Shown one piece after another: positions 9,265-28,600 of a DNA stretch of 64,000 bases (position 1 is its first letter; the number at the start of each line of letters is the position of its first letter). Under the pieces are notes generated by a model. That model did not search any database, was not told where the DNA came from, and saw nothing but the letters and a program-made list of their open reading frames with translations. Made by a program: the position numbers and the translations under genes. Origin of the DNA: a bacterium (GTDB taxonomy: Bacteria > Patescibacteriota > Minisyncoccia > Sungbacterales > SURF-37); assembly GCA_030648055.1 (NCBI GenBank), contig JAUSHI010000009.1:47722-111721 (forward strand). The letters are read 5' to 3'.

Positions 9265-9311
9265 ATTTGATCTGGCGATCGATCAGTTTTGCGAATTGGT
9301 TTAGTCTTTGG

Positions 9312-9575: not shown

Positions 9576-9727
9576 TTATTGGCCCCTTATTATGAAGGCT
9601 TGTAAATGAACTTTTGCCTTCAGCGTATACCAATAGTTCATTTTGGCAAGTAGCGTGTTATGGGGCTTAAACAGCGCCCCTTTTAGATTAATGCGATGCG
9701 GTGGCGTTGAGTCATGATATAGATACC

Positions 9728-9756
9728 TTGACAGAATTTTTGATTTACGCTATAAT
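9728..9756 (+). promoter_or_regulatory. Consensus sigma70-type promoter (TTGACA-17-TATAAT)
   Basis: cTTGACAgaatttttgatttacgcTATAATgta lies about 65 nt upstream of the ATG at 9823. Confidence 0.65.
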
Positions 9757-9822
9757 GTAAGTCAAAGTCAGAGGAGAGTGATGATCTTTTCCAAAACAAA
9801 TCACCAACAGGAGGAAGTAGCG

Positions 9823-10221
9823 ATGAAAAAGGCATGGACGGTCGTATTTGCTCTGCTTTTCGTTTTCGTGTTCGGGCAGGCGTCTGCGGATGAGCTGGGG
9901 TTCGACCCCCAGCTGCTCGTCGGAGAGTACCATGGGACCTTCAAGGTGGAGGAGGGTGGCCAAACCATCAGTGGGTCAGTCTATGTCACTATCAAGAGCG
10001 TGGAGGGTGACAAGGTGGCGTGGGTTTTGTACTTCTCCGCGTCGGTTAGCAATGCCAGCTTCAACCGTGATATCAACGGTATGGGAAAGCTGGAGGGGAA
10101 TACGATTTCCTCCAATCGCGGAGGAGCCACAGTGGTGCTCAATGTGGTGGATAAGGACACGATTGATGGGTACGCTCGCGTGCGTAGCGCCACCAAGTTC
10201 ACGGTTACGAGGAAGAAGTAG
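9823..10221 (+). CDS. Secreted protein with signal peptide, unknown function; GC-rich relative to surroundings
   Basis: SD aggagg, then MKKAWTVVFALLFVFVFGQASA signal peptide. Codon usage is biased to G/C-ending codons, unlike neighbouring genes. Confidence 0.5.
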   Translation: MKKAWTVVFALLFVFVFGQASADELGFDPQLLVGEYHGTFKVEEGGQTISGSVYVTIKSVEGDKVAWVLYFSASVSNASFNRDINGMGKLEGNTISSNRGGATVVLNVVDKDTIDGYARVRSATKFTVTRKK

Positions 10222-10244
10222 CTCAAACCCCTCTGATTCACCAA

Positions 10245-10272
10245 GGTCCGCCTCCTGACGGACCTTTTAAAT
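10245..10272 (+). terminator. Rho-independent terminator
   Basis: ggtccg-cctcctga-cggacc followed by ttttaaattt. Confidence 0.6.
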
Positions 10273-10538
10273 TTCATAAAGATGAAATAGTGCTGAAAGC
10301 TTATGCGATAAATGGCACCACCCCGCGTTTTCAAAGCCACGGTTTTTATGGATTTACGAGGCAAATACGTTGTACCTGAATATCCGATGCTGTTCTCATT
10401 TTGGTTATAATAATTTATATTGAGGATGCGGTGCGGTAGTGATTTTACTTGGAGAGGTAACAATTTTTGGGTAAAAAATTTAATCAATAATTCAAATTAG
10501 CTGACGAAATCGCGACACGCAAAGTTTGTTTGTAAAAT

Positions 10539-10991
10539 ATGATATGGTATCTTAAAAAACGAGGAGTGTCCTTTTTAGAAAAGCAGGTGACCTGTGAAGA
10601 AAAAGAGATTGCCGCCGCACTTAAAAGATATTTTTCCATACTTAATACGCATGATTTAGATGGGCTTAGTGATATTCTGGCTGAAGATGCCGAGATGCAT
10701 TCGTATGCCGCCGGCAATCGTATGGTTGGGAAAGACGAGTTTATAAAAATTGTGAAAAAAATATTTCAAGGTGTTCGGCCGATTTATATGGAAAATACAA
10801 TGATAAGAATTGTCGGCGAATCGGCAATCGTCAATACGCTGTACTTACTACATTCTCATGGCCACGCATACGGTCCACAAAGAACACAGTTTGAATTTAA
10901 AAAAGAAAATGGTGGTTGGAAATTACATACACAGCTTTTTCTTGATCAGAATGTCTCCGGTAGCACCCCGTCAAAGCAAGATGTTACCTAA
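10539..10991 (+). CDS. SnoaL-like / NTF2-fold protein
   Basis: ALKRYFSILNTHDLDGLSDILAEDAEMH is typical of SnoaL/NTF2-like (DUF4440) domains. Confidence 0.5.
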   Translation: MIWYLKKRGVSFLEKQVTCEEKEIAAALKRYFSILNTHDLDGLSDILAEDAEMHSYAAGNRMVGKDEFIKIVKKIFQGVRPIYMENTMIRIVGESAIVNTLYLLHSHGHAYGPQRTQFEFKKENGGWKLHTQLFLDQNVSGSTPSKQDVT

Positions 10992-11027
10992 AAGTTAAAA
11001 GTAATATATCTAAAATTTATATTTTGT

Positions 11028-12047
11028 ATGGAAAAACCACACCGCTACGATAATAAAGAAGATATTTTATCGCAGCTAGACGCTTTATTAAAAAATGATT
11101 ATTTGGTGGTACAAATAGGGTTTGCTTTGGAGCGAATAGGTTTTTTTAAATTATTAGAGGAGCGGGGTAAAATCAATTTTAAAGAAATTGTTGAACTATT
11201 AAAAGTGCGAGAAGATTATTTAAGGGTGTGTACGGATTTTTTATGGGCGGCATCAAGTATTCTTGAAAGAGACAAGGATTTTTTTTCTTTGAAATATAAA
11301 ACCGTTGGACGAGGATTGTGGTGGTTGGCGGCGTATAAGCCGGTTCTTGATAATTTGGCCGGGCTTCTTACCGGAGAAAAATTATACGGCCGTGACGTAA
11401 AGCGAATCGGTCATTATCTCCAAAAAGCGTCGGATTTATCAAATCAGGATGCCGCAGATAAGGCTTTGTATTTATTAAGAAACGAAGGCGGCATTTTGGT
11501 AGATATGGGATGCGGGTCTGCCCATACACTAATTACATATTGCCAGGAAAAAGCAGGGCGCTATGGGGTCGGCATTGATGTAGATCCGGAAACTGTGCAA
11601 GAGGCGCGGCGGCACGTGAAAGGCGCGGCGCTGGAAGGATCCATTAGTATAGTTGAAAGCGATGCGTTTGAAGTTGAGAGATGGAGGGACGCAGTTCTTA
11701 AAAAACAGAAGGTTTTATTTTTGTTAAACACCGTTCTGCATGAATTTTTTCGGAACGGCGACGAAGCTGTGGCGGGCTTTTTACAGGAACTGAAAAAAGA
11801 ATTTCAAGATTCTAAATTGATTATTATTGAATTTGATGCCTGGGAGTTCAGCAAAATTAAAGAAGAGAAAGACAGAAATAAGGCCGCAGCTTTTTATGCG
11901 GCCAGATATCAATTAGTTCATCCTTTAACCGATCAGGGCATGCCACGGTCGCGTAAGGAGTGGGAAGATGTGATTAAAAAAGGGGGCTGGCAAGTAAAAG
12001 ATATTATACCCGCAGAATATAATTTGGTCATTTATAATTGCGCATAA
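11028..12047 (+). CDS. Class I SAM-dependent O-methyltransferase with N-terminal winged-helix dimerisation domain
   Basis: Motif I VDMGCGSAH, preceded by about 130 aa resembling the dimerisation domain of small-molecule O-MTs. Confidence 0.65.
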   Translation: MEKPHRYDNKEDILSQLDALLKNDYLVVQIGFALERIGFFKLLEERGKINFKEIVELLKVREDYLRVCTDFLWAASSILERDKDFFSLKYKTVGRGLWWLAAYKPVLDNLAGLLTGEKLYGRDVKRIGHYLQKASDLSNQDAADKALYLLRNEGGILVDMGCGSAHTLITYCQEKAGRYGVGIDVDPETVQEARRHVKGAALEGSISIVESDAFEVERWRDAVLKKQKVLFLLNTVLHEFFRNGDEAVAGFLQELKKEFQDSKLIIIEFDAWEFSKIKEEKDRNKAAAFYAARYQLVHPLTDQGMPRSRKEWEDVIKKGGWQVKDIIPAEYNLVIYNCA

Positions 12048-12102
12048 TATACCAAGATTATAGCGGGCCCGCGATGGGTTTTTTGGCATAGTGATGACTT
12101 TT

Positions 12103-13401
12103 CTATAGCGACTCATCAACATATGGAACAGTTTTGCCGTGGTTTGTAAGATTTGGCAGATAGCTCACAATTTTTATATCGGTTATAATATTACAGTCAT
12201 CTTTTAGTTGTCTTTTTAAAGATTCTAACTTGTTTGGCGGGACTTTTCCGTTGGCAATAATCCTTAATTCCAGGCGCCCGGATGTTATTCTGGCTAACTG
12301 GTATTGCACGATGAATCTGTCAAAATTATTTATTACGCCACTTATCTCAAGTAGCGTGATATGATTTTGACCGATATTAAGTGCGATTCCATCGCGGCCG
12401 TTGATAAAAAGCCTTTTTGACCGTACGCCGCAACGGCACCGTTTTTTCAGGATGACGCCGATATCACCTGTTTTATATCTGATGAAGGGCATAATCCGGT
12501 TATAAAAGTGAGTGAGCACTACATGGCCACTTTCTCCGTTAGCAACGGCACCCCCAGCATTATTAATTATTTCAACAATGAATGATTCCTCATTAATATG
12601 AAATCCTTTGTGCTCGGCGCATTCCATTCCAACCGGACCGAATTCCTCCAAACCGTACAGGTCATAGACACCCCCCTTGTTGCTCAGAATATTTTCAATA
12701 AAATATCGCTGGCCGTAAGATAAATTTTCTCCGTAAGATATTATGTAAGGAATTTTAATTGGTTGTACGCCAACACCAGCTTCTGCCATTGTACGCCCGA
12801 CCTCGGCCAATATCGTCGGAACACTTTCTAAAATAAAAGGCTGGAATGTTCCCAGCTTACTAATGACAGATCGGGCATTTTTTCTGACGTCCGAAACCGG
12901 AATAAATAAATAATTTTTTTTCAGCGGCATCGGCCGGAATCCTATGTGGGCGACTTTTAGCGCATCCATATTTTTATTGAATCCTTCCCAAAACAGAAAT
13001 CTGTATTTCGTAAAATCGTAATATCGTTTATCACCATAAACAGCGCTGACTAGGGTAATTGGGAACCGAAATGGTTCTCCAGTGGTGCCCGATGTCTGGC
13101 GCCATATGTATTTTCCTTGGTAATTCCAGTTTAGCAACAGGTTCCGGTCTTGCTGCTTTAGCGTTCTTTTGTCCATGATCGGGAGAATATCTATATCGTT
13201 GCGCGTTTTTATGCTGTCGGGATTTATTTTTGATTCTTTAAGTATGCGCGTGTAAAAAGGGACACCATCGTACGCAATTCCCAATAGTTTTTTTAGTTGA
13301 TGCGATTGCCACGCGTACACAATCGGCGAGGGGAGCTGATGTATAATGCTCCAGGCAGAAAATTTTATTTTGTTGTTTAAATTTTTTAGAAGCTGAATCA
13401 T
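12103..13401 (-). CDS. PaaK/CapK-like adenylate-forming enzyme (phenylacetate-CoA ligase / F390 synthetase family), paralog 1
   Basis: Adenylation motif TSGTTGEP and a length of about 430 aa. Confidence 0.75.
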   Translation of the reverse strand: MIQLLKNLNNKIKFSAWSIIHQLPSPIVYAWQSHQLKKLLGIAYDGVPFYTRILKESKINPDSIKTRNDIDILPIMDKRTLKQQDRNLLLNWNYQGKYIWRQTSGTTGEPFRFPITLVSAVYGDKRYYDFTKYRFLFWEGFNKNMDALKVAHIGFRPMPLKKNYLFIPVSDVRKNARSVISKLGTFQPFILESVPTILAEVGRTMAEAGVGVQPIKIPYIISYGENLSYGQRYFIENILSNKGGVYDLYGLEEFGPVGMECAEHKGFHINEESFIVEIINNAGGAVANGESGHVVLTHFYNRIMPFIRYKTGDIGVILKKRCRCGVRSKRLFINGRDGIALNIGQNHITLLEISGVINNFDRFIVQYQLARITSGRLELRIIANGKVPPNKLESLKRQLKDDCNIITDIKIVSYLPNLTNHGKTVPYVDESL

Positions 13402-13413
13402 GGAGGCCGTCGT

Positions 13414-14391
13414 TTAATTGTTGGTACTTGTCATGAGATTTAATATTTCCCGAATAAAATCTTCTTTTTGCGGAAGAGCGTACTTGCCGAAGCCATAAGG
13501 AATAGGAACATTTGCGGCCCCCAATTTTATAATTTTTATATCTGGACACGAACTCCGCGCGATATTTTCTATAATCGGGTAAAGTCCTCCTCCGGCCAGC
13601 GGTTCTTCGTCGGCAATAAGCAGCCTTTTTGTTTTACGGGAAGTTTCTTTTATTTTTTCTGTATCAAGGGGTTTAAGGCTGACTAAATCTAAGATTTCCA
13701 CATCTACGCCTTGTGTTTTCAGTTCGTCAGCGGCACTCTCCGCCATATCCGTCATTTGCGCGTGGGTTATTATTGTTACATCTTTGCCGGTTCTTCTGTA
13801 CTCTGCTTTTCCGGACGGGTATTTATAATCGGCATCGGTGGGTTGGCCTAATTTTTTATATAAACCCCAGTGTTCAAGAAAAATAATGACCTTACCCGTT
13901 GAAGTAAAGGCCGTGCGCAAAAGTCCTTGTGCCTGCTGCACTGTGCTCGGCGATATAATCACTACTCCAAGAAAATTAAAAAATTGGGAAATGAAAGGAA
14001 TGGAAAGTTGTCCGCCCACCTTGCCGCCCCCCCAACGCACTCTTATGATTGTTGATGGCATGGTTGTGCGCGTGCACATCATGCTCCATATTCCCGATAA
14101 GAAAATATCAGAAGCGGCAATGGTAATAAGCGTGCCGTGGGCAAACTCTACTATTGGACGAAGTCCCGCTTGCGCGGCCCCCAGAGCAATGCCTACAAAA
14201 AGCTCTTCATTGATAGGCGTTTCTCGTATTCGTTCTTCACCAAATTCATCAATGAATCCTTTGGTAATGCCGTCTCTTCCCCCCCATTTTCCTATGTCCT
14301 CTCCCATTATGAAAAGGCGAGAGTCCTTTCTCATCTCATCATGGAGGACTTCTTTGATTGCCTCGGATATTGTGATGTTATTTGTTGACAT
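13414..14391 (-). CDS. TPP-dependent dehydrogenase E1 component, beta subunit-like (transketolase-like C-terminal fold)
   Basis: E1-beta pattern (MGEDIGKWGG...ETPINEELFVGIALGAAQAGLRPIVEF) over 325 aa. Confidence 0.8.
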   Translation of the reverse strand: MSTNNITISEAIKEVLHDEMRKDSRLFIMGEDIGKWGGRDGITKGFIDEFGEERIRETPINEELFVGIALGAAQAGLRPIVEFAHGTLITIAASDIFLSGIWSMMCTRTTMPSTIIRVRWGGGKVGGQLSIPFISQFFNFLGVVIISPSTVQQAQGLLRTAFTSTGKVIIFLEHWGLYKKLGQPTDADYKYPSGKAEYRRTGKDVTIITHAQMTDMAESAADELKTQGVDVEILDLVSLKPLDTEKIKETSRKTKRLLIADEEPLAGGGLYPIIENIARSSCPDIKIIKLGAANVPIPYGFGKYALPQKEDFIREILNLMTSTNN

Positions 14392-15463
14392 CGGAGTTTT
14401 CCATTAATAGTTCATCTTTAGATAACTCTTTTTGCGCACGCGCCTGGTCAAGGGCCTCTTGTACTTCACGTTCTGCCTTTTTTTCCAATACAGAAAGAGA
14501 AGCTTCGTCGGCAATATTATGTGCAATAATTTTTTTTCGCGTTGAAAGAACGGGGTCTGTCTGCTCTTTGTTGGCGGTGTCCAGAAAATTATTATCCAAC
14601 GTGTCCGACATAAAAAAAGCTTCGTGTGGTACACGCCTATAAGTTTTTATTTCTAAAAAAGCCGGAGCAGATTCGTGTCTTGTTTTTTCAAACATTTTTT
14701 TTGCTACAGGGAAAACTTTAAATAAGTCATCACCCTCGACGCAGTCGGAAAATAAGCCGATTGATCTCGCCTTTTCAAAATATGGCCTGGCGGTAAGACG
14801 AGACAGCGGTGTTGTTACGGAAAGCTGATTATTTTCGCATACCCAAATAATCGGCAATTTCCAAAGCACAGAAAGATTAAGCGCGCTGTATAATGTTCCT
14901 CGAGAGGCCGCACCGTCTCCGAAGAATATGGCAACGACACGGTCGTCATTAAAAAATCTTGCCGCCACACCCATGCCGACTGCGATTGAAAAACCGTTTC
15001 CCAGCATGCCCCCCTGGGGGAAAACGCCATATTGCGGTAACATAAAATTTATAGGTGAGACGCCTTTACCCATGCAAACGCCAGTTTTTTTACCCAAAAT
15101 TTCTGCGGCGATAGCTCTTAACGGAACACCCTTACTTAGTGCCACAGCAAAACCTCTATAGTAAGGAAGCAGAAAGTCTTTATTCTCTAAAAGTCCGCCA
15201 ACGGCGGCCTGTCCGGCTTCTTGCCCTCTTCCTTCGAAAAAACTTCTTTTTAGGAGCATATTTTTATCAGCCAGCTCCTTGACTTTTATTTCCAAAATTC
15301 TTGCCGTGACCATATGTTCCCACATTTTTAACACTGCTGCCCCTAATTCCGTATTTTTTTTTAAAAAACTATCGTTAAAAAGCGCAGTCTCGTCGTTGTT
15401 GCCATGGTTGCCCCCCCTTTTTTCTTCTGGTAGTGTCATAATATCGGGTTGGTTTATGCGCAA
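14378..15463 (-). CDS. TPP-dependent dehydrogenase E1 component, alpha subunit-like
   Basis: TPP motif FFGDGAASRGTLYSALNLSVLWKLPIIWVCENNQ. It overlaps the beta-subunit gene by 14 nt, consistent with translational coupling. Confidence 0.8.
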   Translation of the reverse strand: MRINQPDIMTLPEEKRGGNHGNNDETALFNDSFLKKNTELGAAVLKMWEHMVTARILEIKVKELADKNMLLKRSFFEGRGQEAGQAAVGGLLENKDFLLPYYRGFAVALSKGVPLRAIAAEILGKKTGVCMGKGVSPINFMLPQYGVFPQGGMLGNGFSIAVGMGVAARFFNDDRVVAIFFGDGAASRGTLYSALNLSVLWKLPIIWVCENNQLSVTTPLSRLTARPYFEKARSIGLFSDCVEGDDLFKVFPVAKKMFEKTRHESAPAFLEIKTYRRVPHEAFFMSDTLDNNFLDTANKEQTDPVLSTRKKIIAHNIADEASLSVLEKKAEREVQEALDQARAQKELSKDELLMENSDVNK

Positions 15464-15498
15464 ACCCCTAAATAATTTATAGAAACAACTATATAATT

Positions 15499-16245
15499 AT
15501 GTTTTTAGCAGATTCTTTAAAATATATTTCGGCCGATTTTTATGAAAAGACTGTTGGTACGCCGCTGGAAAAAAAATCAATAATGAGGGTTGCGCAAATT
15601 GTGCGGGCCAGGGCGCTTGAAGGAAGCAAAAAAAACGTTCTTGACATAGGTTGTGGAAGCGGTGTGCTCGCCGTAGAATTGGCCGACATTAAAACAATAG
15701 AATATATCGGTATAGATATCAATGAAGGGTTTATAAAGAGGGCTCGGGAGCGATTAAATTCTCATCATAATTTTACCTTTTTCGTAGAGGATATAGCGCG
15801 ATATTGCCCGAATCTTAAATTTGATATAATTATTCTTTGCGGCACCTATCATCATATTCCGGACGAGCATAAAGCCGTTGTGCTACGGCGGGTTGCAAGC
15901 GTTCTTGCGGAAAGAGGCATCGTGGTTTTATATGAAAAATTGCTTGCTCCGTATTCCACAAAAAAAGAGTTTATTTCCGCAAATAGGATTTTTTATAGAA
16001 AAAGATTTGCTGCTCAATTTCTCGCCGGAGAAATAGGACCCCGGCATCTATTGGCCCTTCTAAAAATAGGTTTAGGGGATATATCTGCGTTTCAGGAATA
16101 TAAGATTGATTATCAGCGCCTCATCTCATATTTTTTTTCGCACGGGCTTGTACCTGTTGAAGAACACAAGATCTGGCCAGCAAGAAATTTATTCAAAAAA
16201 AATAATATCGGCGATTTTATTTTTGTATTTGCACATGGAAATTAA
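15499..16245 (+). CDS. Class I SAM-dependent methyltransferase
   Basis: Motif I VLDIGCGSGVLAVELA. Confidence 0.7.
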   Translation: MFLADSLKYISADFYEKTVGTPLEKKSIMRVAQIVRARALEGSKKNVLDIGCGSGVLAVELADIKTIEYIGIDINEGFIKRARERLNSHHNFTFFVEDIARYCPNLKFDIIILCGTYHHIPDEHKAVVLRRVASVLAERGIVVLYEKLLAPYSTKKEFISANRIFYRKRFAAQFLAGEIGPRHLLALLKIGLGDISAFQEYKIDYQRLISYFFSHGLVPVEEHKIWPARNLFKKNNIGDFIFVFAHGN

Positions 16246-17008
16246 ATTTCATAATAAAATAATACTAGTTACCGGATCAACGCGTGGTATCGGGAAAGAA
16301 ATTGCCCGAGCATTTGGAGAGGCCGGGGGCAACATCATTATTAATTCCAGGCGGGAAGAGGCGGTTGAGGATACGGTAGATGAATTTAGAAAGTCCGGTT
16401 ATCAGGCTGTCGGTTACGCCGCGGATGTCGGCAGTTGGGATTCGGTTAAAAAACTCATGGAATTTATAGGAGCGACACACAAACGTCTGGATGTGATCGT
16501 TAATAATGCGGGAATCAGTTTTCCTTTGGCGGGCGTTAGTGAAATGGCGGTGGAAGATTGGGATAATATCTTGAAGACAAATCTTAGCGGTCCGTTCTTT
16601 GTCGCTAAAGCGGGGCTTCCACTCATGCAGTATGCCGGTGGAGGAAGTATAATTAATATAGGTTCCATGGCTTATCTCCTACAGATAGGATCGCCTAATC
16701 CAGCATATAGCGCCGCTAAGGGCGGATTAGTTTCTCTTACCAAAGCTTTGGTTAAGGATTGCTCGCCTCATAAAATTCGCGTAAATGCGATCAGTCCCTG
16801 GTATGTAAAAAATGATAAATTTGATGATATTTTTAAAAAAGCAGGAATTGACCAGAATTATGCGGCCGAACGGAATCCATTAGGCAGGACCGCTTTACCG
16901 GCAGATATTTCCAGTTTGGCGTTATTTCTGGCTTCAGACCACGCGTCGTTTATTAGCGGTCAAGTAATTCATGTTAGCGGAGCGGCAGAGGTTTTGATTA
17001 GAAAATAA
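16235..17008 (+). CDS. Short-chain dehydrogenase/reductase (SDR)
   Basis: VTGSTRGIGKEIA glycine motif and SDR topology over about 257 aa. The start is taken at the internal ATG 16235, which overlaps the upstream stop. Confidence 0.8.
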   Translation: MEIKFHNKIILVTGSTRGIGKEIARAFGEAGGNIIINSRREEAVEDTVDEFRKSGYQAVGYAADVGSWDSVKKLMEFIGATHKRLDVIVNNAGISFPLAGVSEMAVEDWDNILKTNLSGPFFVAKAGLPLMQYAGGGSIINIGSMAYLLQIGSPNPAYSAAKGGLVSLTKALVKDCSPHKIRVNAISPWYVKNDKFDDIFKKAGIDQNYAAERNPLGRTALPADISSLALFLASDHASFISGQVIHVSGAAEVLIRK

Positions 17009-17039
17009 TTTTTATAAAATCTTTTGGAGTTATTATAGT

Positions 17040-18140
17040 TTGATTAATAATGCCATGGAAGACGTAAAAATTTTGCTTGCATTATTGCGGGTGATAATAG
17101 GACGGGATTATTTTTTCCCCACAAGCAAAACAATAAAAAATTTTGAAACCGCTTTTGCAACGCTAGTCAGTTCTGCACACGCATTCGGTGTTTCTAACGG
17201 AACTGATGCGCTAATAATGGCTCTGAAGGCCTGCGGTATACAGGCGGGTGATGAAGTAATTGTCCCGGCTTCAGGTTTCATTGCAACCGCCTCGTGTGCC
17301 GCATGGATCGGCGCGAGGCCGGTATTTGTAGATATTGATTTCCGCACTTTTAATATTAATCCCTCTCTTATAGAAAATTATATTACTATTAAAACAAAAG
17401 CAATTATTGTTACGCACCTCAATGGCAGAATGGCGGACATGGATAAAATTTCTGCTATTGCAAAAAAACATAACCTATTCCTTATAGAAGATGCGGCTCA
17501 GGCTGTAGGTTCAAAATACAGAGGGGAATCAGCGGGGCATTACGGGGACATGGCTTGTTTTAGCTTCAATCCGTCCAAGGCGTTAGCGGCTTATGGAGAC
17601 GGAGGGGCGGTGGTTACAAATAATATTTCTCTTGCGGAAAAAATATCGTTAATGAGAACATACGGCGCCCGTTTTAAGGAAATTTCCGCCCACCATAAAA
17701 TTATAGGCGTAGCGAGCCGTTTGGGGGCGTTGCAGGCCGCTATATTATTGATTAAACTTGAAAATATTTCCTCTGTTATTGAGGCATGGAGACATAATTA
17801 TTTTCTTTATTTTGAGGCGCTTCGCGGTGTTGGTGATTTGATTCTTCCGGAAGTGAGCGATGATTTTTTTATCAACGGTTATCGTTTTGTGGTGCTTACA
17901 AAAAAGAGAAACGATTTACAGCAGTTTTTAAGAAAGAACGGCGTAAATAGTCATATCCAGTACGGAGTTTCAATCCCGTATTTTGAAGCTTTTTCTTATC
18001 TTCAACATAAAAGGGGGGAGTTTCCAGAAAGCGAACGGGTGGCATTCGAAAGCATTGTTCTTCCAACTGCTCCTATTTTTCGAGAAAATGATATTTATCG
18101 CGCAGTGGCGCTTATAAAAAAGTTTTTTGCGAATTTGTAA
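17040..18140 (+). CDS. DegT/DnrJ/EryC1/StrS family PLP-dependent sugar aminotransferase
   Basis: Fold-type I AT pattern with SFNPSKALAAYGDGGAVVTNN (PLP Lys). Confidence 0.85.
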   Translation: MINNAMEDVKILLALLRVIIGRDYFFPTSKTIKNFETAFATLVSSAHAFGVSNGTDALIMALKACGIQAGDEVIVPASGFIATASCAAWIGARPVFVDIDFRTFNINPSLIENYITIKTKAIIVTHLNGRMADMDKISAIAKKHNLFLIEDAAQAVGSKYRGESAGHYGDMACFSFNPSKALAAYGDGGAVVTNNISLAEKISLMRTYGARFKEISAHHKIIGVASRLGALQAAILLIKLENISSVIEAWRHNYFLYFEALRGVGDLILPEVSDDFFINGYRFVVLTKKRNDLQQFLRKNGVNSHIQYGVSIPYFEAFSYLQHKRGEFPESERVAFESIVLPTAPIFRENDIYRAVALIKKFFANL

Positions 18141-18206
18141 AGAATTATTGAGAAGGCGAAATCGGGATCGGTTATACATTTTTTAATTTGACGGTAAAAA
18201 TAAAAG

Positions 18207-19115
18207 ATGATATCAATACATATCAAGCCAAGGTTCTTTAAAACCAAAGGAGCGGCAAAAATGGGAAGTACTCATGGGTTTAATGGGAGTCGGGAAGATG
18301 TTCTAAGAATATGGGAAAAAAATTCGGAAGGGTGGTTTTCTGTCGGTTCTCCTTGGAGGCCGTCCGCCGGCGATGTAAGAGTATATCAAAAATTGTGCGG
18401 TTCAAGGATTAACGGCAGAGTGCTGATTCTTGGTTCTACTTCGGAATTGCGCGAGCTTGTAGCATCGCAACATAATAGTCCGGTTTTGGTAGACATTAGT
18501 TTCGCAATGCTTCAAAAAATGAGTCAGTCATTAACGCATGGCGACCAGGCAAATGAAATATGGATCAAATCTGATTGGTGTGAGGCGCCCCTACGGTCAA
18601 ATTACTTTGATCTTATTATCGGCGATATGGTATGGTGGGTTGTTTCGGTAGATTCACAGTTTAGACTGCGTGACAAAATAGCGGACCTTCTTGCCCCGGA
18701 CGGCATATTTGTTTCACGTTTTCGTCTGATAGGGGCGGGCAACGGACAGCACAATCCGCGCGGAGTGGTAAAGGAGTATTTGGCGAAGTACGAAGCAAAC
18801 CCTGAAAATGAAATTTTGTTGCGGAATGCCATGATGTCGCGGCTTTATGACAGTACTGCCGATGTCGGAACGAAACGTCTTAATCGCGAGAGAGCAAAAG
18901 TGATTTTGTCGGAGGTTTCGGATGGTCTGGATAATTCCAGGCACCGCGCTTTTCTTTCTGCGGCCTCAGAAAGACTTTTGAGCGCTGATTGGACAGCCCA
19001 GACGAGAGAAGAGATTTTTTCCATTTTAGCGGATAAGTTTGAGCTTTTTTCAGAGATGCACGCAACTGATTATGAGTCAGAATATTATCCAATAGTTTCA
19101 TTTAAGAAAAAATGA
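18207..19115 (+). CDS. Hypothetical protein with a methyltransferase-like Rossmann fold and a degenerate SAM loop
   Basis: VLILGSTSE replaces GxGxG. Post-I (LVDIS) and motif III-like (LLAPDGIFV) elements are present. Confidence 0.35.
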   Translation: MISIHIKPRFFKTKGAAKMGSTHGFNGSREDVLRIWEKNSEGWFSVGSPWRPSAGDVRVYQKLCGSRINGRVLILGSTSELRELVASQHNSPVLVDISFAMLQKMSQSLTHGDQANEIWIKSDWCEAPLRSNYFDLIIGDMVWWVVSVDSQFRLRDKIADLLAPDGIFVSRFRLIGAGNGQHNPRGVVKEYLAKYEANPENEILLRNAMMSRLYDSTADVGTKRLNRERAKVILSEVSDGLDNSRHRAFLSAASERLLSADWTAQTREEIFSILADKFELFSEMHATDYESEYYPIVSFKKK

Positions 19116-20485
19116 GCTTAAAGTGGTTTGCTAAAAAAATTATAATTTCAGCTCCTTTTTCTGTGGAGTATTCTTCGGAATATGTTCCATCTATTATCAA
19201 ATCAACCGCCAAAAGGGTTGATTTTTTATTGCAAAATTGGGCCTTGACCCAATCTGATTCTTTTTCCGGGGAAGAATGGCGTAAAATTCAGCTTATTAAA
19301 CTGAAGAAATTGTTGATTCATGCCAGAGAGGGTGTGCCTTCTTGGGATGATCTTTTTAAAAAGATCGGTTTTATTCCAGAAAAATTTGAACGATTTGAAG
19401 ACTTGCGACACATTCCGGTGATTACCCGCGCCGATATAAAAAAAATCCCGATTGAAGCTCTTACTGCCAAAAACATTCCTCGCTGGCGTTTTAAAGAAGC
19501 AGTGACATCGGGTTCTACAGGAGAGCCGCTGAAATTTTTTCAAGACCTCCGCGATAACTTACGGCGAGAGGTAAACACCTTTCATGAATTAAGATACGCT
19601 GGTGTTTCTTATCGCGATAATATAGTGGTATTGGATTTGGATAAGCATAATGATTTGAACAATTTCGGCAAGCGATTCAGCAGTATTGAGTGGGGCGACA
19701 GCAAATTCAGGCAATCCGTCATTTACCCTTATCTGAAATTAAAGCCGGCGGTGCTTATCGCCAACGGAAGCAATTTGAGAAGATTTTTATTTTTAATCCG
19801 GCAGGAAGCTCCAGACACAATTTTTAAAACTTTAATGTACCGGGGCGAGCACATAAGCAAGTCGGAGCGTAATAATATTTCCCGATTTTTTAAATGTCCA
19901 ATTTTTACCTGTTACGGCAGTCGGGAAACTTCACTTTTAGGAATTGAATGCGAATATCACAAATTACATTTAGCGCCGTGGATGAGTTATTTTGAAGTTG
20001 TATCGGACAGCGAACAAACCGTCCCCGAAGGCGATGAAGGCAATGTGGTTGTAACTTTTTTTGAAAATTTTGTTATGCCGTTTATGAGGTATAAAATTGG
20101 CGATAGGGCGATAATAAATACCGAATCGTGTTCTTGCGGCCGAAAATCAAAAACAATTAATTTTTTTGGGCGGGAGTCGGAATTTATTAAATTTCCGGAT
20201 TCCAATAAAAGCTTATCAATTCTTAGTTTGACGCGTCGCGTCGATGAAAATTATTGTAATAGTATTGGGCAGTATCAGTTTGAATTGATAGGCGAAAGGC
20301 TGATAGTATTTCGTTACGTTCCAGTTTCAGCAGTAAATGAAACGGAAAAGAATAATTTAAGCGGTTTGCTGGAAAAGGCTTTGGGGCATCAGTTTCGCAT
20401 TGTGCTGGAAGAAGTGGCGGCAATAAATCCATTAGCCGACGGCAAAACCCCAATTTTAATAAGAAATAAGCCGCGCAATTTGTAA
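19112..20485 (+). CDS. PaaK/CapK-like adenylate-forming enzyme, paralog 2
   Basis: TSGSTGEP motif. The overall architecture is collinear with the 12103..13401 product. Confidence 0.75.
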   Translation: MSLKWFAKKIIISAPFSVEYSSEYVPSIIKSTAKRVDFLLQNWALTQSDSFSGEEWRKIQLIKLKKLLIHAREGVPSWDDLFKKIGFIPEKFERFEDLRHIPVITRADIKKIPIEALTAKNIPRWRFKEAVTSGSTGEPLKFFQDLRDNLRREVNTFHELRYAGVSYRDNIVVLDLDKHNDLNNFGKRFSSIEWGDSKFRQSVIYPYLKLKPAVLIANGSNLRRFLFLIRQEAPDTIFKTLMYRGEHISKSERNNISRFFKCPIFTCYGSRETSLLGIECEYHKLHLAPWMSYFEVVSDSEQTVPEGDEGNVVVTFFENFVMPFMRYKIGDRAIINTESCSCGRKSKTINFFGRESEFIKFPDSNKSLSILSLTRRVDENYCNSIGQYQFELIGERLIVFRYVPVSAVNETEKNNLSGLLEKALGHQFRIVLEEVAAINPLADGKTPILIRNKPRNL

Positions 20486-20684
20486 CGCCATGAATGAATT
20501 ATTTCTAAAACTAAAAATTATCAACGCCTTGGCCAGAATTGTCTTGAAGGGGGAAAATACCGGAGATTTTATGTTAGGCAAGCCGGTCCAGATTTTTGAA
20601 CGATCTTTATTTGATTAAGTTTTAATCCCACGAGAACGAGTGTCTCATCCTTCTGACTAATTATTTATTAACAAAAGAAAATAT

Positions 20685-21658
20685 ATGTCAATAGCAGGAC
20701 CTCAATACTCCATAGTTATTCCAACTTATAATCGCGCCAAAACTCTCGCTTTAACCCTAAATTCTGTTTGCCAACAAACCCTTTCGCCTGAAAAATATGA
20801 GATCTTGGTGGTTGATGACGGATCATCGGATAACACTAAAGAAGTTGTTTTACATATCCAAAAAAATATTCTCACTGCGGTATCCTTTATTTCCATGAAC
20901 AAACCGGCGGTCCCGCTAAGGCCAGGAACTTGGGCATCAAAGAATCCAAAGGCGAAATTATATTTTTTACCGATGACGACTGCATAGTGCCGCCGGACTG
21001 GATGGCAACGCTTTTAGACGGATATAAGAGACATACGGAGGTTGTCGGGGTGGGGGGATGGCATATACCGCCGGATGGAGAACTTGAAAAAAGCGCTACC
21101 TCGCGATATACCCATTATGAAAGTTTTTATCACGACCGTTTTAACCAATCTCTTATATTTTATGAGGTTTTGACTAATAATCCTGTTATGTTTTTTGGAA
21201 CTTTCGCTTATAACACGGCGAATATATGCTATAAAAAGGAAATATTGCGAAAGGTCGGCGGTTTCAAAGAAGATTTTTACTGGCCCGGAAGCGAAGATAA
21301 CGACCTTGCCTTTAGAGTCGCGCAAGCCGGGTACTGTCTGCTTTATCTGCCATTTAATGTAATCCATTCAAAAGCCATGAATTTGTTAGAATTTATGAAA
21401 CTCCATTTCCGCCGAGGGGCCAATGGTTACTTTTTGCGTACTATGCATGTTGATATTCTCAAAAAACAAAACCCCGGATTTATTAAAGATTATGGTTCGA
21501 TAAAATATTTTATCCATCATCTCAATGGTCCGGAAAAGTTTTTGGCATTTTTGGAATGGCTTAGTTTAAACGCTGGCATTATGTATATGAAAAATAAATT
21601 AACCGAACGCGACAAGCCAGTACTTTCCAAACCAGAGGAAAAAATTAGTAACGATTGA
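20685..21658 (+). pseudogene. GT2 family glycosyltransferase, interrupted by a -1 frameshift at an A7 tract (~20859-20865)
   Basis: ORF 20685..20987 carries IVIPTYNRAKTL...LVVDDGSSDNT. The next frame carries FHEQTGGPAKARNLGIKESKGEIIFFTDDDC. Changing A7 to A8 fuses them into one intact GT2. Confidence 0.6.
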
Positions 21659-22720
21659 AACAAAAGAAAAGCGGACCATGTCCGGAATGGACTTTGAAAA
21701 TAAAGGCGGTTGGCTTCTGCTTGTAAAAATAATTTTGGAATCGTTTATGGTCCGTTTTAAAAAAAATAAAAAATCTGGGTTTTGGCGAATATCCGGATGC
21801 AGTAAATATAGAAAATGCCAATCTAAGCCCTGAAGAAGGCACTTTTTTATGTGAATGCCAAGCGAAAAATCCGCGAAATGCTTTACCATTTTCGGTTCGT
21901 ATAAAAGTTTTAATCCTAATTTACGCGCTCTTATTTTAAATTCCATAAAGCCGACATGCTTAAAATACGGATTGAATCCGCCCAACTTTTCAAAAATTTC
22001 TCTACGGTAGCAAACATTGGCGGTTAAGCCGCATTGATTATTTAGAATATCAAAGTTTTTTGTGCGAACATGCGTGCGGTAAAAATGCTTCCACATTGTA
22101 AACCGGTGATAAATATCAAGGGGGGGTTTTATCGGCCAAGGTTCTTTAAATCCGCCGACTCCGGCGATTTCCGGGTTGGCTTCCAGTTCTCGCTTGAATT
22201 CAAAAAGCCAGTCTGGCGGGACAATACAGTCGTCGTCGGTAAAGGCGAGCAAATTTCCCTGCGAATTTAAAACGGCGACATTTCGCGCTAAATCGGCGCC
22301 GTAATTTTTTTTTAATTTGATATAAACCATACTCGTCTGTCTATTTTGATCCGCAAAATCCTCCACCGCTTTTTCGGTCTTATCTTTTGAACCGTTATCA
22401 ATTATTACTATCTCAAATTCATCCAAAGAAATATTCTTCTGCCCTATTACGGCGTTAACGGTTTTTAAAAGCAGGTCGCGGCGATTATAAGTTGGAACGA
22501 TTATACTAAATAGAACAACGTTTTTTTTATTAGAGCCGAATTTTGTGACATTCTCAATGTAAGAAGTATAATCATCGCGCAAAAAATTGTTATCCTCGGG
22601 AGGAGTTTCCCCGTAAAAAAATTCAATCAGTTCACGATAGGAGGTATTGTCCTGCTCTATACGACAAATAATGCGCAGAGTTTTTAAAAAATTAGACGAC
22701 ATGTTGATAATAACTTTCAT
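21599..22720 (-). CDS. GT2 family glycosyltransferase
   Basis: FSIIVPTYNRRDLL...VIIDNGSKDKT and ...FTDDDCIVPPDW. There is an N-terminal extension of about 65 aa. Confidence 0.8.
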   Translation of the reverse strand: MKVIINMSSNFLKTLRIICRIEQDNTSYRELIEFFYGETPPEDNNFLRDDYTSYIENVTKFGSNKKNVVLFSIIVPTYNRRDLLLKTVNAVIGQKNISLDEFEIVIIDNGSKDKTEKAVEDFADQNRQTSMVYIKLKKNYGADLARNVAVLNSQGNLLAFTDDDCIVPPDWLFEFKRELEANPEIAGVGGFKEPWPIKPPLDIYHRFTMWKHFYRTHVRTKNFDILNNQCGLTANVCYRREIFEKLGGFNPYFKHVGFMEFKIRARKLGLKLLYEPKMVKHFADFSLGIHIKKCLLQGLDWHFLYLLHPDIRQNPDFLFFLKRTINDSKIIFTSRSQPPLFSKSIPDMVRFSFVSIVTNFFLWFGKYWLVAFG

Positions 22721-23567
22721 AATCTTCTTTTAATCCTGAAAATAAAGGTTGAAATTTTAATCCCAGCGCTTTAATTTTGCTGTTGTCGCATATCATATTT
22801 TCATTGGCAAAAGGGAACTCTTCTTTGTCAAAATTTTTTCCGGCGGCAGGCGGATTGAACCGCAAAACTGGATCCTTACCGGAGATTTTTCCCATCATCT
22901 TCACCAAATCAATAAGTGTTATTGTTTCGTCTCCGGCGCAGTTAAATGCGCCGACAGCGCGTTTTTCCGCAATCGCCGCGATTGCTTCGGCTACTTCTTC
23001 GGCAAACACAAATTGAATTTTGGCTTGACCATCGCCTGGTAAAATAAGCGGCCGGTTATTTTGAATTCGTGTATAGATAAAGCGTTCGCGGTTCTGATAA
23101 TTTTTTGGTCCTAAAATATAGACCGGACGAAACGAGGCATATTTTATTCCGCTTTCTTCAAGAACTTTTTCGCACCCAGCCTTGCCCCTGCCGTAGTTGC
23201 CCCAAATCGGCCAATCGCCTACGGGAGAAAGTTCGGTTAATGGAAACAAATGGGGTTTTTTATAAACCGCGGCGGTGCTAAAATGTAAAAAGAAGTCAAA
23301 ACGCAATTCCCGTATAGCGTTTTCGGTTTGCGCTTCGCTGTAAGCGCACATATCTATCACTGTATCAAAGCGCTCTTTCAGATTGTATCCTCTGTTTCTG
23401 TCACCTGTTACAAAACGCGCTTTCGCCGGATATTCTAACTGTATCAATCCGCGATTAAATATAGTTAAATTATGTCCGCGGTTTAACAGAAGTTCTACGA
23501 GATAGGGCCCCACAAAACGCGAGCCGCCGATTATTAAAATATTTTGCTTGTCAGGAGAGGTCATCAT
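22692..23567 (-). CDS. NAD-dependent epimerase/dehydratase (extended SDR)
   Basis: ILIIGGSRFVGPYLVELLLNRGH Rossmann motif. Confidence 0.8.
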   Translation of the reverse strand: MMTSPDKQNILIIGGSRFVGPYLVELLLNRGHNLTIFNRGLIQLEYPAKARFVTGDRNRGYNLKERFDTVIDMCAYSEAQTENAIRELRFDFFLHFSTAAVYKKPHLFPLTELSPVGDWPIWGNYGRGKAGCEKVLEESGIKYASFRPVYILGPKNYQNRERFIYTRIQNNRPLILPGDGQAKIQFVFAEEVAEAIAAIAEKRAVGAFNCAGDETITLIDLVKMMGKISGKDPVLRFNPPAAGKNFDKEEFPFANENMICDNSKIKALGLKFQPLFSGLKEDYESYYQHVV

Positions 23568-23573
23568 ATCATT

Positions 23574-23664
23574 GTGTATAACACATTTGCCAAGACGCTG
23601 AAAATAGTTGTATTATTATAGTGTATAACACATTTGCCAAGACGCTGAAAATAGTTGTATTATT
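23574..23664. repeat. Perfect tandem direct repeat, 2 x 44 bp separated by 3 bp, each unit promoter-like (TTGCCA-18-TATTAT)
   Basis: gtgtataacacatttgccaagacgctgaaaatagttgtattatt occurs at 23574..23617 and again at 23621..23664, in the divergent intergenic region between the epimerase and ORF 23695. Confidence 0.85.
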
Positions 23665-23694
23665 GTAAATATAAAAAATAAATTTTTAACTATT

Positions 23695-25149
23695 GTGAAA
23701 AACCTTTTTAATTCTCTTAAGTTTATTTTTAGAGCGTTTCTTTTAGTTATTATCTTACTGTTTGGCTGGGCGTTTATTAATGTCGCCAATTTAATCAAGG
23801 GCAAAAAAACGCCGGACAAAGATTCTTTGTCCGCCAACCCGTTTGGGGCGGATGAAGCAAGGGCTGACACTCCGGGAGGAGGGGGTTTTTCTTCTTGCCC
23901 TTTTCTCGCTTGTTTTAATGGAAAAGAATACAAATTAGAAAATGATATTCTTTTTGGAAGACCAAAGAGCTACTGGCCTACATACGAAACAGCCAAAGCC
24001 ATGTACGAAGATGGCCGTATAAGCCCCGATCTTTACAAAATCACCAGCCCAATAAGGCCCCATAATAATAAATTGCTTTTTCAAATTCAGGAAATAGAAC
24101 CGGAAGAAAGTTTCTTTAAGCAACTTCGTTTAAAAAGAGTTTTACATCCCCAAAATACGGAAGTCATCGTGGACTCTGAATTTAAGAAGTATTACGTTCT
24201 CCCCCAAACCGAATTTCTAAAAAGCATTATTCTTCCATCGCTTGTAAAAAATGCTGATAAAAAAGATGTGGCGGTAAGTTTTAGTTTAGGCCGGGTCTTT
24301 GTAAGCGATACGGAAGGGGACGATGGAATTAAATTTCAAAAAAACGAAGAGTTTTATTTTTATTTTAAAGACCTAAATCCTAAAGAGACTTCCCATCTTT
24401 TACTGTCTTCATTTAATCGTGACTGGCAGTTAGGATATCAAGAAGAATGGGTTGCCAACCCCCAGTTTAATATTCGCGCACTTATTAGCCGTTTAGATTT
24501 TGCGCGTGTTGGGGTCGGAGTCGCGTTACTAATTGGTGCTTGGATATCGGGAAAATGGGGTTCTGTTGCGACCGCTGCGGTATTGAGCCCTTTTTTTATC
24601 GGAGCAGGGCAAGCGGGTTGCTCATTTATAATTGAATATAAAGATAGGGACGAAACCTATTCAAGAGTAGCGGTTACTGAAGCAAGGGCATGGAAATACA
24701 ATACGGAAATTATTGAAATTCCTCGGGACAGTATTACGCCAAGTGGTGAGCTTGAGTTAAGAATAAAGTCGTCAAAAAGACATGTTCTTGGTTTCGCTGG
24801 GATATCTCAAAAAATAGAGTCGCTTAATAATAAAAATTATCAAGAAGAAATATTACCGTTAATTACAGCCGAGCATAGTAGATTACGAAAAGACGTTTCG
24901 GGCGACCTTAAGAGTAGAGAGGGATCGTATGTTCATACAATACCGGGCGATACGATTAATCTTGAGTTTAGTGTTCCGGAAAGTTTGGTTTCCGATGAAA
25001 ACAAGGAAACATATCTTATTCAGTCATCCGGTTTTTACACATCCCTTAGGCCGGAAAATATGAAGCTCGCCGGCAATTGGAAAGAAAAAATCTCTCAAGA
25101 GGCAAAAGAACGTCTTGAAAAACTTGTTTCGCTAAGTTCTTATAAATAA
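23695..25149 (+). CDS. Hypothetical membrane/extracytoplasmic protein (N-terminal TM plus an internal hydrophobic segment), unknown function
   Basis: GTG start, TM helix FLLVIILLFGWAFINVANLI. No recognisable catalytic motifs. Confidence 0.4.
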   Translation: MKNLFNSLKFIFRAFLLVIILLFGWAFINVANLIKGKKTPDKDSLSANPFGADEARADTPGGGGFSSCPFLACFNGKEYKLENDILFGRPKSYWPTYETAKAMYEDGRISPDLYKITSPIRPHNNKLLFQIQEIEPEESFFKQLRLKRVLHPQNTEVIVDSEFKKYYVLPQTEFLKSIILPSLVKNADKKDVAVSFSLGRVFVSDTEGDDGIKFQKNEEFYFYFKDLNPKETSHLLLSSFNRDWQLGYQEEWVANPQFNIRALISRLDFARVGVGVALLIGAWISGKWGSVATAAVLSPFFIGAGQAGCSFIIEYKDRDETYSRVAVTEARAWKYNTEIIEIPRDSITPSGELELRIKSSKRHVLGFAGISQKIESLNNKNYQEEILPLITAEHSRLRKDVSGDLKSREGSYVHTIPGDTINLEFSVPESLVSDENKETYLIQSSGFYTSLRPENMKLAGNWKEKISQEAKERLEKLVSLSSYK

Positions 25150-25174
25150 ATTTATTTTTAGTTTAGATATTGCT

Positions 25175-26251
25175 ATGAAAGAATGGCTAATAAATAAAAA
25201 GTTTATTGTAATTTTAGTAGCTTTAGCGGTTTTGTTTTTGGCCGCTTTTTGGGGGGCGCGCTTTGCCGCTTCTTATTATTACGAAAAAGGCGCGGGGATG
25301 TTTTTACAAAATAATTTTGAAGCTGCTAAAAGTAACTTTACCACGTCTTTAATATTTAATTCTAAAAATCCCAAAACCCATTATTTTCTCGGGAAAATAG
25401 CTTTAGGCCCGCCAGTACCCAGACAACTTGTTTACCATCCTCGGGCCGATTATAAAGAAGCGGTTAAACATTACGACAAAGCGATGTTATTCGGTCTTGA
25501 GCAAAAAAACCAGAATTTATATAAAGTCGCTCTTGATGATTTAGGCAACGCGTATTGGAATTTAAATGAGCTGGACAAGGCGCGCGAAAAATATTCTGAA
25601 AAATTATCAAAATTTCCAGAATCATCTTTTTGGGCGAGGTATTTTATCGCGTGGGACGACTTTTACCGTCTTAACAAGCCAGAAGAGGCTTTAGAAATAT
25701 TGCCGACCACTTTAAGTATTACAATGTCAGACAACGATAGATGGAATCTTTTTAGAATTCATGTGCTTTTATCTCGTCTCAATTTATATTTTGGCAATTA
25801 CGCCAACGCCATAAAATACGCCAAATTGGTTATTGAAAATGTTGAGCCCGAAAACAAATATGAAGGAATTCAGGCCGCTCATGCGCTTTTAGCAGTTGAT
25901 TATGGCCGCCAGAAAAATTTTTCTTTAGCCGAAGGCGAAGTAAAAAAGGCCAACGATTTAGCTGGAGTGATCGGCGCTTACAATTGTTCTCTCGCAGTGG
26001 CTTATATCAGCGGTGAAAATTATCTCAAAGCAATTTTAATAGCCGAAAAAACGGATAAGACCGCTCTGACTTATATAAATTCTCTCTGTATTCAGTCTTT
26101 GGCTATTTCTTATTTAGCGAAAGGCGACAAAATTAACGCCAAGAAGTATCTTGAAGAGTATTTGAATTTTACTGAAAAATTATCGGAAAAAAATATTTTT
26201 GTAATGCGCAATCGCCAACAATTTTCTGACGAGCTTTTGAAATTAAAATGA
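25175..26251 (+). CDS. Membrane-anchored TPR-repeat protein
   Basis: N-terminal TM followed by multiple TPR-like helix pairs (AxxxYxxAl...). Confidence 0.6.
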   Translation: MKEWLINKKFIVILVALAVLFLAAFWGARFAASYYYEKGAGMFLQNNFEAAKSNFTTSLIFNSKNPKTHYFLGKIALGPPVPRQLVYHPRADYKEAVKHYDKAMLFGLEQKNQNLYKVALDDLGNAYWNLNELDKAREKYSEKLSKFPESSFWARYFIAWDDFYRLNKPEEALEILPTTLSITMSDNDRWNLFRIHVLLSRLNLYFGNYANAIKYAKLVIENVEPENKYEGIQAAHALLAVDYGRQKNFSLAEGEVKKANDLAGVIGAYNCSLAVAYISGENYLKAILIAEKTDKTALTYINSLCIQSLAISYLAKGDKINAKKYLEEYLNFTEKLSEKNIFVMRNRQQFSDELLKLK

Positions 26252-27039
26252 CTTATTTAAAAACTAAAAAAGGGCCTCTCTGGTTTTCAATCGGAGCAGT
26301 GGTTATTTTTTCATTTTTTCTTTCACGGGACAGCTTAGCTCGTTTTGCTTGGCAAAAATACCACAGCGCAAATCTCGCGTTTTTTTTAGATCACGGCGAT
26401 GCTGATTTAGCTCTTAAAATAGGCAATTACTATTTTAATGTTTATAAAGACGGTGTGTATGACCTTAATAAGGCGAAAAAATATTTTAATAAAGCGCTGG
26501 AAATTGACCCTAAAACGCCGGATGCCTGGCATCAGCTAGCAAGAATTGATTTTTTGAAAGGCGATTTTACTTTGGCTCTTGAAAAAATAAATAAACAAAT
26601 AGAAATCCACGGCGACTCGTTCATGGCATCTTTTTATATTCGCGGACTTATTGAGGGGTACGCCGGCGACTTTGATCAAGCCGAAAAAGATTTTAAAAAG
26701 TTCATTGAATGGGACCGGCAGAATTGGGCGGCCCTAAACGATCTTGCTTGGATTTATTTTAAAAAAGGCGATTACAAAAATGCCGAAAATATGGCAGAAA
26801 TCGGCCTTAAAATTGCCCCTCAAAATCCATGGCTTTTAACGGTTTTTGGCGTATCTATGCTCAACCAAAACCAAAAAGAAGAAGCTAAAAAAGCCTTTAT
26901 TCAGGCTAAAATCAATGCCAATTTATTAACGGAAGCGGACTGGCACAAAGCCTATCCAGGCAATGATCCTAAATCGGCGGGAAAAGGCCTTGAATCAATG
27001 AAAAAGATAATTGAATCTGACTTAAGTCTTATCCAGTAA
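26248..27039 (+). CDS. Membrane-anchored TPR-repeat protein
   Basis: N-terminal TM plus TPR units. It overlaps the upstream gene by 4 nt (ATGA). Confidence 0.6.
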   Translation: MTYLKTKKGPLWFSIGAVVIFSFFLSRDSLARFAWQKYHSANLAFFLDHGDADLALKIGNYYFNVYKDGVYDLNKAKKYFNKALEIDPKTPDAWHQLARIDFLKGDFTLALEKINKQIEIHGDSFMASFYIRGLIEGYAGDFDQAEKDFKKFIEWDRQNWAALNDLAWIYFKKGDYKNAENMAEIGLKIAPQNPWLLTVFGVSMLNQNQKEEAKKAFIQAKINANLLTEADWHKAYPGNDPKSAGKGLESMKKIIESDLSLIQ

Positions 27040-28516: not shown

Positions 28517-28600
28517 TGGGCGAGGAGGGAGTTGAACCCTCATGAGCTTGCGCTCGCAGGATTTTGAGTCCTGTGCGTCTGCCAGTTCCGCCACTCGCCC
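28517..28600 (-). tRNA. tRNA-Leu (anticodon CAA), type II with long variable arm
   Basis: The reverse complement folds as GGGCGAG / TG / GCGG-AACTGGCAGA-CGC / A / CAGGA-CTCAAAA-TCCTG / long variable arm / GAGGG-TTCAACT-CCCTC / CTCGCCC-A. This is near the E. coli tRNA-Leu pattern. No encoded CCA. Confidence 0.88.

Follow-up and report, generated by a model that had tools for sequence, protein, structure and literature searches.

Phase-variable surface glycosyltransferases are known from the Neisseria lgt genes, the Campylobacter jejuni LOS and capsule genes and the Helicobacter pylori fucosyltransferases. The tracts of the known phase-variable transferases are strain-variable poly-G/C or multi-base repeats, longer than the run described here. 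Homopolymer runs of at least 7 nt are strong indel hot spots generally, and in Mycobacterium tuberculosis their per-kb rate of indel accumulation is hundreds of times that of the remaining genome (PMC10334774).

We analysed a family GT2 glycosyltransferase gene that is split at a run of seven A's. It lies in a 64-kb stretch of DNA, analysed as a whole and called the window below, from a 245-kb contig of an NCBI metagenome-assembled genome (MAG; locus tag prefix Q7R91_). Topoisomerase I from the window was 79–84% identical to Patescibacteria and Sungbacteria proteins, and the best homologs of the GT2 came from Parcubacteria, Saccharibacteria and Azambacteria MAGs; these matches place the organism among the CPR/Patescibacteria bacteria. 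The window is chromosomal, since it carries ParA, ParB, TopA, DprA, RelA/SpoT, SHMT and FolD genes. The explanation we favour, with a probability of about 0.55, is a recent and genuine A8 to A7 slippage deletion, inactivating, in the dominant genotype, one of a pair of neighbouring GT2 genes, rather than an evolved switch.

The split gene and its product

The features of the locus, in window coordinates, are the following.

20685-21658, forward strand: whole GT2 glycosyltransferase gene, disrupted by a 1-nt deletion; 324 aa if the run is A8
20685-20987, forward strand: 5' ORF in frame 0, from ATG 20685 to TAG 20985-20987, 100 aa
20860-20866, forward strand: A7 homopolymer, the frameshift site; probably A8 ancestrally, with CAA AAA AAA encoding Gln-Lys-Lys
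20861-20867, forward strand: A_AAA_AAT heptamer in the register for -1 slippage, 0-frame codons CAA AAA AAT
20864-21658, forward strand: 3' part in the -1 frame, residues 61-324 of the intact protein, no internal stop
20972-20980, forward strand: DDD (DxD) metal and nucleotide-sugar motif within FFTDDDC, codons GAT GAC GAC, D97/D98/D99 invariant in 14 sequences
21599-22720, reverse strand: convergent paralogous GT2, intact, 373 aa, 33% identical, its 3' end overlapping the broken gene by 60 nt

The run stands in the context ATCC-AAAAAAA-TATTC and is read as CAT ATC CAA AAA AAT ATT CTC. Frame 0 passes through it to end in ...HIQKNILTAVSFISMNKPAVP...TTA and a stop codon. Residues 1-60 of the 100-aa product are native, and the last 40, which begin NILTAVSFISMNKPAVP, come from the wrong frame. 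From 20840 the -1 frame stays open as far as the stop at 21656-21658, and it is translated as ...YPKKYSHCGILYFHEQTGGPAKARNLGIKESKGEIIFFTDDDC..., a reading also given across the same stretch as ...PKKYSHCGILYFHEQTGGPAKARNLGIKESKGEIIFFTDDDCIVPPDW.... Insertion of one A yielded an uninterrupted protein of 324 aa. Removal of two A's (A5) likewise restored the frame, with one residue fewer than in the homologs. The run lies early in the gene, at 18% of its length, and changes of +1 or -1 toggle the frame, such that A7 is out of frame and A8 in frame. In the database record, the gene is deposited as two CDS, MDO8561013.1 (100 aa) and MDO8561014.1 (242 aa, start TTG 20930).

The repaired protein aligned end to end, with no gap at the junction, with 13 intact homologs, at identities from 60 to 38%. 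Homology follows frame 0 through ...KEVVLHIQK and the -1 frame from KYSH on, and this switch places the lesion within the run itself. The sequence-only reading of this DNA had proposed a GT2 gene split at the A-run, with a frame-0 stop at 20987 and a complete enzyme if the run were A8. All of this held: homology changes frame exactly at the run, the TAG occupies 20985-20987, and the 324-aa protein is a GT2 colinear with intact homologs. The same reading was right in calling the run an A7 and misplaced it by 1 nt, at 20859-20865, the correct position being 1 nt to the right. The orthologs that it proposed to inspect carry an intact gene: the 13 closest homologs are single chains, and the syntenic ortholog P0002 of locus L083, where the order is GT2, convergent GT2 and epimerase, is intact and has no run at the site.

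The identification as GT2 was also borne out. The repaired protein matched Pfam PF00535 (Glycos_transf_2) over residues 9-164 with an E-value of 2e-35 and 122.6 bits, for a cut-off of 23.3, and related GT2 models matched across residues 6-243. In the alignment of 14 sequences, 40 columns were invariant, FFTDDDC among them. An AlphaFold2 model built on the homolog alignment gave a single GT-A domain (pLDDT 84.6, pTM 0.85), for which the best Foldseek match was the K4CP chondroitin polymerase 2z87 (E 5e-14); matches to K4CP, TarP, RmlT and WrtF were found at E-values of about 1e-13. By phmmer, the best solved relative was the E. coli K4 chondroitin polymerase (E 5e-26). The protein thus has the profile score, the DxD motif and the GT-A fold of a PF00535 GT2. 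No NCBIfam equivalog scored above its cut-off; the best sub-threshold model was EpsD, at an E-value of 1e-40 but well below the cut-off.

On the secondary-structure map of the model, the frameshift maps to residue 60/61, where helix 51-61 ends, ahead of strand 66-71. The A7 product retains only the VVDDGS motif, strand 1, helix 1, strand 2 and helix 2. The DDD motif is encoded 3' of the frameshift and is missing from it. In GT-A enzymes, a product without the DDD motif and everything after it is null. Lacking this motif and the acceptor side, the A7 product is predicted from the model to be a null allele, barring trace read-through.

The ancestral state of the run can be approached from L082/P0014, a Hainich groundwater homolog 56% identical to the repaired protein. 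It reads V-V-F-N-L-Q-K-K-Y-S-H at the junction, encoded by ...CTC CAG AAA AAA TAT TCT CAT, and the window with A8 would read ATC CAA AAA AAA TAT TCT CAC, or I-Q-K-K-Y-S-H. Together with the gap-free alignment, the QKKYSH of L082 points to an ancestral A8 that lost one A. We infer that this A8 arose from Gln-Lys-Lys codons. At the homologous codons, the run is A6 in L004 and L082, interrupted in L003, and absent from L002, L083 and L005-L007. A 201-aa homolog covering the C-terminal part only (P0030) was considered as a recurrent split and set aside, the same gene being intact in L006; on the ENA scaffold of P0030, no gene is called upstream.

Conservation was scored over the columns on which 12 or more of the 13 other sequences agreed. 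Of 64 such columns, the repaired protein matched 62 (16/16 upstream of the break and 46/48 downstream), and intact homologs scored 56-62 of 62-75. No stop was found in the 264 downstream codons. The gene is therefore disrupted relative to intact orthologs, with no further lesion and no loss of conserved residues, and a true pseudogene with a decaying downstream half, which the sequence-only reading had offered as one outcome, is not what we found. Absence of downstream decay makes the lesion very recent, artefactual or compensated. Such preservation is equally expected of an error, of a compensated gene and of a switching gene.

Homopolymer runs, neighbouring genes and a second assembly

The window contains 75 homopolymer runs of at least 7 nt, 70 of them A/T runs of up to A10; A7 occurs 19 times and T7 26 times. 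In its 54 gene-length ORFs (54.7 kb), 59 A/T runs of at least 7 nt were counted versus 42.9 ± 6.5 expected under within-gene codon shuffling, a count reached in 1.7% of the shuffles. This excess is opposite to the situation in E. coli genes, where AAAAAAA and UUUUUUU are under-represented (PMC4066793). In the split GT2 gene, one run was observed versus 1.07 expected. Lys is encoded by AAA in 72% and Gln by CAA in 47% of cases, and from codon usage alone the probability of A8 given Gln-Lys-Lys is 0.25. An A7 run by itself is within chance expectation; the splitting of the gene lies far outside it. Among the 59 A/T runs in coding sequence, 58 are in frame, including an A10, a T9 and more than 20 runs of 8, and a greedy ORF map of the window gave dense, uninterrupted genes.

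The A10, at 4665-4674, is the longest homopolymer of the window. It spans codons 3-6 of a deoxynucleoside-kinase gene (4658-5299, forward strand) and is in frame (ATG GAA CAA AAA AAA AAT, window 4658-4680). Judged by its physical properties, it is a much stronger candidate for slippage than the A7. The strongest local excess lies in two adjacent genes with 6 and 5 A/T runs of at least 7 nt, for about 1 expected in each by codon shuffling. The intact GT2 paralog (21599-22720, reverse strand) contains five homopolymer runs of at least 7 nt, all in frame; counting A/T runs only, 4 were observed versus 1.57 expected.

14378-15463, reverse strand: E1 dehydrogenase alpha-like gene, 6 A/T runs of at least 7 nt
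15499-16245, forward strand: methyltransferase gene, 5 A/T runs of at least 7 nt
22305-22313, in the paralog, as read on the forward strand: T9 (A9 on the coding strand)
22521-22528, in the paralog, as read on the forward strand: T8
21759-21766, in the paralog, as read on the forward strand: A8
22120-22126, in the paralog, as read on the forward strand: G7
22615-22621, in the paralog, as read on the forward strand: A7

One other ORF pair in the window looked suspicious: the overlap between 15499-16245 and 16106-17008 was inspected as a second frameshift and rejected. It consists of a methyltransferase followed by a short-chain dehydrogenase, which are two genes, and the overlap arises because the upstream TTG of the latter is spurious, the dehydrogenase domain starting at residue 51.

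The split gene belongs to a surface-glycan cluster. The 3' overlap of the convergent GT2 pair measures 60 nt here (21599-21658) and about 123 nt in L083 (1670-1792); found in both, the convergent overlapping layout is conserved. Partial redundancy between the paralog and the broken GT2 is possible. Two paralogous adenylate-forming enzymes are encoded in the cluster, at 12103-13401 on the reverse and 19112-20485 on the forward strand. They gave sub-threshold NCBIfam matches to the DVU_1553-family AMP-dependent CoA ligase, PaaK and coenzyme F390 synthetase, and the adjacent gene in the homolog locus L081 has Pfam CapK_C. The cluster further includes a DegT aminotransferase, a short-chain dehydrogenase, three methyltransferases and a TPP-dependent E1 alpha/beta pair, a gene content that suggests an elaborately modified sugar.

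Elsewhere in the window, the 1.7 kb at 8822-10538 carry only small ORFs, on both strands and of 72-168 aa, none with a Pfam match; among four of them looked up in the protein collection, none had an exact match. This stretch could consist of fast-evolving small genes or of degraded sequence. A promoter and terminator scan of 20300-21900 returned counts at or below the shuffled expectation, and the sole match of the Rfam and tRNA scans was a tRNA-Leu at 28517-28600.

The locus is also present in the Logan assembly of run SRR13727527, which is identical to the window over 19.3 kb. Three Logan contigs cover window positions 7040-19552, 19531-23603 and 23635-26334, each at 100% identity. The A-run is A7 in both assemblies, MAG and Logan; the latter is built from this one run, and the reads are probably common to the two. 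One Logan contig reaches 24 kb, which makes very thin coverage unlikely. A literature search on the run accession yielded no paper. The contig break at 19531-19552 lies within sequence encoding VTSGSTGEPLKF, which we took as a conserved adenylation motif, and could reflect shared k-mers. The break at 23603 was considered as a sign of strain variation and is explained by a 47-nt tandem duplication at 23567-23664 (2.1 copies, 96% identical, unit TATTATAGTGTATAACACATTTGCCAAGACGCTGAAAATAGTTGTAT) that coincides with the contig end. This duplication occupies the divergent intergenic region between the epimerase gene (22692-23567, reverse strand) and an ORF of 484 aa (23695-25149, forward strand) for which no family match was obtained.

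Other alleles were sought more widely. In the homolog search, no sequence had an identity above 60% and below 100%. The JGI metagenomes had 0 matches to a pattern in which the run could be 5-10 bases long, and showed no other allele; neither the A8 nor the A5 protein had an exact match among 15 billion sequences.

Explanations of the frameshift

The lesion is most economically explained by slipped-strand loss of one A. Under the reading that we favour, an ordinary GT2 of the GT-A fold, in the surface-glycan cluster of an uncultured, groundwater-type Patescibacteria/Parcubacteria-like bacterium, would originally have had CAA AAA AAA (Gln-Lys-Lys) at codons 59-61, an A8 produced by codon usage alone. 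One A would then have been lost, presumably by slipped-strand mispairing at replication, leaving A7 and a -1 frameshift in the dominant genotype of the sample. The reads would truly carry A7, and the allele would be null apart from trace read-through by RNA-polymerase or ribosome slippage. With nothing else decayed in the gene, the lesion would be young, and reversion would be possible at the elevated indel rate of any run of at least 7 nt. Nothing indicates that the run was selected as a switch.

A dropped A in the sequencing or assembly consensus, the organism truly having A8 and an intact gene, is an alternative explanation. A single base in a homopolymer is the classic signature of such errors, the downstream half is perfectly preserved, the source is a MAG, and the Logan contig rests on a single run, whose reads may also underlie the MAG. 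However, two different assemblers gave the same A7 and do not differ at any base of the 19.3 kb, and the neighbouring 24-kb Logan contig speaks against very low coverage. Nor is there a systematic homopolymer error, since 58 of the 59 coding A/T runs, up to A10, are in frame, whereas an error-prone platform would have broken several; the split GT2 was the only homopolymer-linked frame break seen. The assembly error put forward by the sequence-only reading is thus weakened, and we retain it as unlikely. Its other proposal, phase variation, would have the A-run kept as a slipped-strand switch that turns a surface-glycan transferase ON and OFF, the sampled population being mostly OFF. The position of the run, at 18% of a gene whose frame is toggled by +1 or -1, fits this, as do the surface-glycan cluster, the adjoining paralog with its A9 and A8 runs, the undecayed downstream half and the somewhat higher number of genic A/T runs than in shuffled sequence; in other bacteria, 7-base runs can phase-vary (PMC10334774). 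A reversible A7/A8 toggle is physically plausible because runs of at least 7 nt are genuine indel hot spots. But the tract bears no mark of selection, being neither conserved among the homologs (A6, interrupted or absent) nor in excess in this gene, and Gln-Lys-Lys codon usage accounts for it. A single allele was seen, that of the two assemblies, with no other in the JGI metagenomes or the collection of 15 billion proteins, and the only length seen, A7, comes from assemblies whose reads are probably common. The phrase 'phase variation' does not occur in the papers ranked highest by a literature search that joined phase variation with Patescibacteria/CPR terms. Beyond the presence of a run, which is short, unconserved, not enriched and derived from Gln-Lys-Lys codons, we found no support for the switch, and we hold it to be improbable. 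That A7/A8 is a working switch in an episymbiotic member of the Patescibacteria (CPR), as one element in a broader use of the genome's very dense A/T runs (about 1.2 per kb) to diversify the surface, is more doubtful still; if true, this group would have its first described contingency locus.

Two further explanations would have the gene produce active enzyme from the A7 template. A full-length protein could be made by programmed -1 frameshifting on A_AAA_AAT or by transcriptional slippage adding an A. The heptamer is indeed in the correct register for -1 slippage and the downstream half is intact, and AT-rich endosymbionts with small genomes rescue frameshifted cell-wall genes at poly(A) runs (Atkins et al., PMC5009743). 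The cited rescue cases are, however, long poly(A) runs, not A7, and no stimulatory element, such as a hairpin or pseudoknot 5-9 nt downstream, accompanies the heptamer: the 94-nt downstream stretch folds worse than its shuffles (z +1.25), the best downstream hairpin, at -8 kcal/mol (z -0.79), was matched by 43 of 200 shuffles, and in the upstream sequence, read by eye, no Shine-Dalgarno-like stimulator was seen. The two-frame layout is not conserved either, all inspected orthologs being single ORFs. Unstimulated heptamers in E. coli reach 2-10 times a background of about 0.05% (PMC4066793). The heptamer comes with the run incidentally and could at most allow some leaky read-through; trace read-through is plausible, but a programmed mechanism is not supported, and we consider recoding very improbable. 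It could also be that the 100-aa and 242-aa pieces associate non-covalently as a functional split enzyme, both being annotated as CDS in the record. Against this, the model shows one compact GT-A domain whose nucleotide-binding half is interrupted by the break, the 100-aa piece carries 40 out-of-frame residues, the 242-aa piece has as its start a TTG with an AGGA only 2 nt ahead of it, and all 13 closest homologs are single chains, so that we find a split enzyme hardly credible.

MDO8561013.1 and MDO8561014.1 each represent half of a single disrupted gene, and their annotation should mark it as a frameshifted gene or pseudogene. On its own, a frameshifted accessory glycosyltransferase in a MAG carries little weight, such genes being routine in bacterial genomes and MAGs. 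The window is nevertheless unusually rich in genic A/T runs of at least 7 nt, and length mixtures at many of them, if true, would raise the question of slippage-driven surface variation in the CPR.

Comparison with known systems

In the Neisseria, Campylobacter and Helicobacter loci, as in this GT2 gene, the 5' part of the surface-glycan transferase contains a homopolymer in which one base switches the frame. The runs of those loci, in contrast, are typically longer, of poly-G/C or of poly-A of about 9 or more, conserved and variable in length between and within strains, none of which was seen here. As a glycosyltransferase, the protein has the DxD motif and the GT-A fold of the E. coli K4 chondroitin polymerase domain (PDB 2z86/2z87) and of EpsD-like exopolysaccharide transferases, but with only 25% identity and no equivalog-level assignment. 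The AT-rich insect endosymbionts offer another parallel, that of a small-genome, symbiont-type bacterium rich in A/T runs with an envelope gene frameshifted in poly(A) (PMC5009743). In those insects' symbionts, however, the poly(A) runs are long and 12-50% of transcripts are corrected (PMC5009743), whereas the A7 here is short and known from DNA alone.

The M. tuberculosis hot spots, such as the 7C run of glpK (PMC10334774, bioRxiv 10.1101/717272), differ in that recurrence and reversibility were demonstrated there across 31,428 isolates, and here one allele is at hand from one sample. The whole M. tuberculosis genome has 145 such runs and this window alone 75, a density that makes the run here unremarkable. 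In both, a short coding run of 7-8 nt toggles the frame by +1 or -1, and the change would arise by slipped-strand mispairing and be reversible in principle. The event in the GT2 gene is of an ordinary kind, already known.
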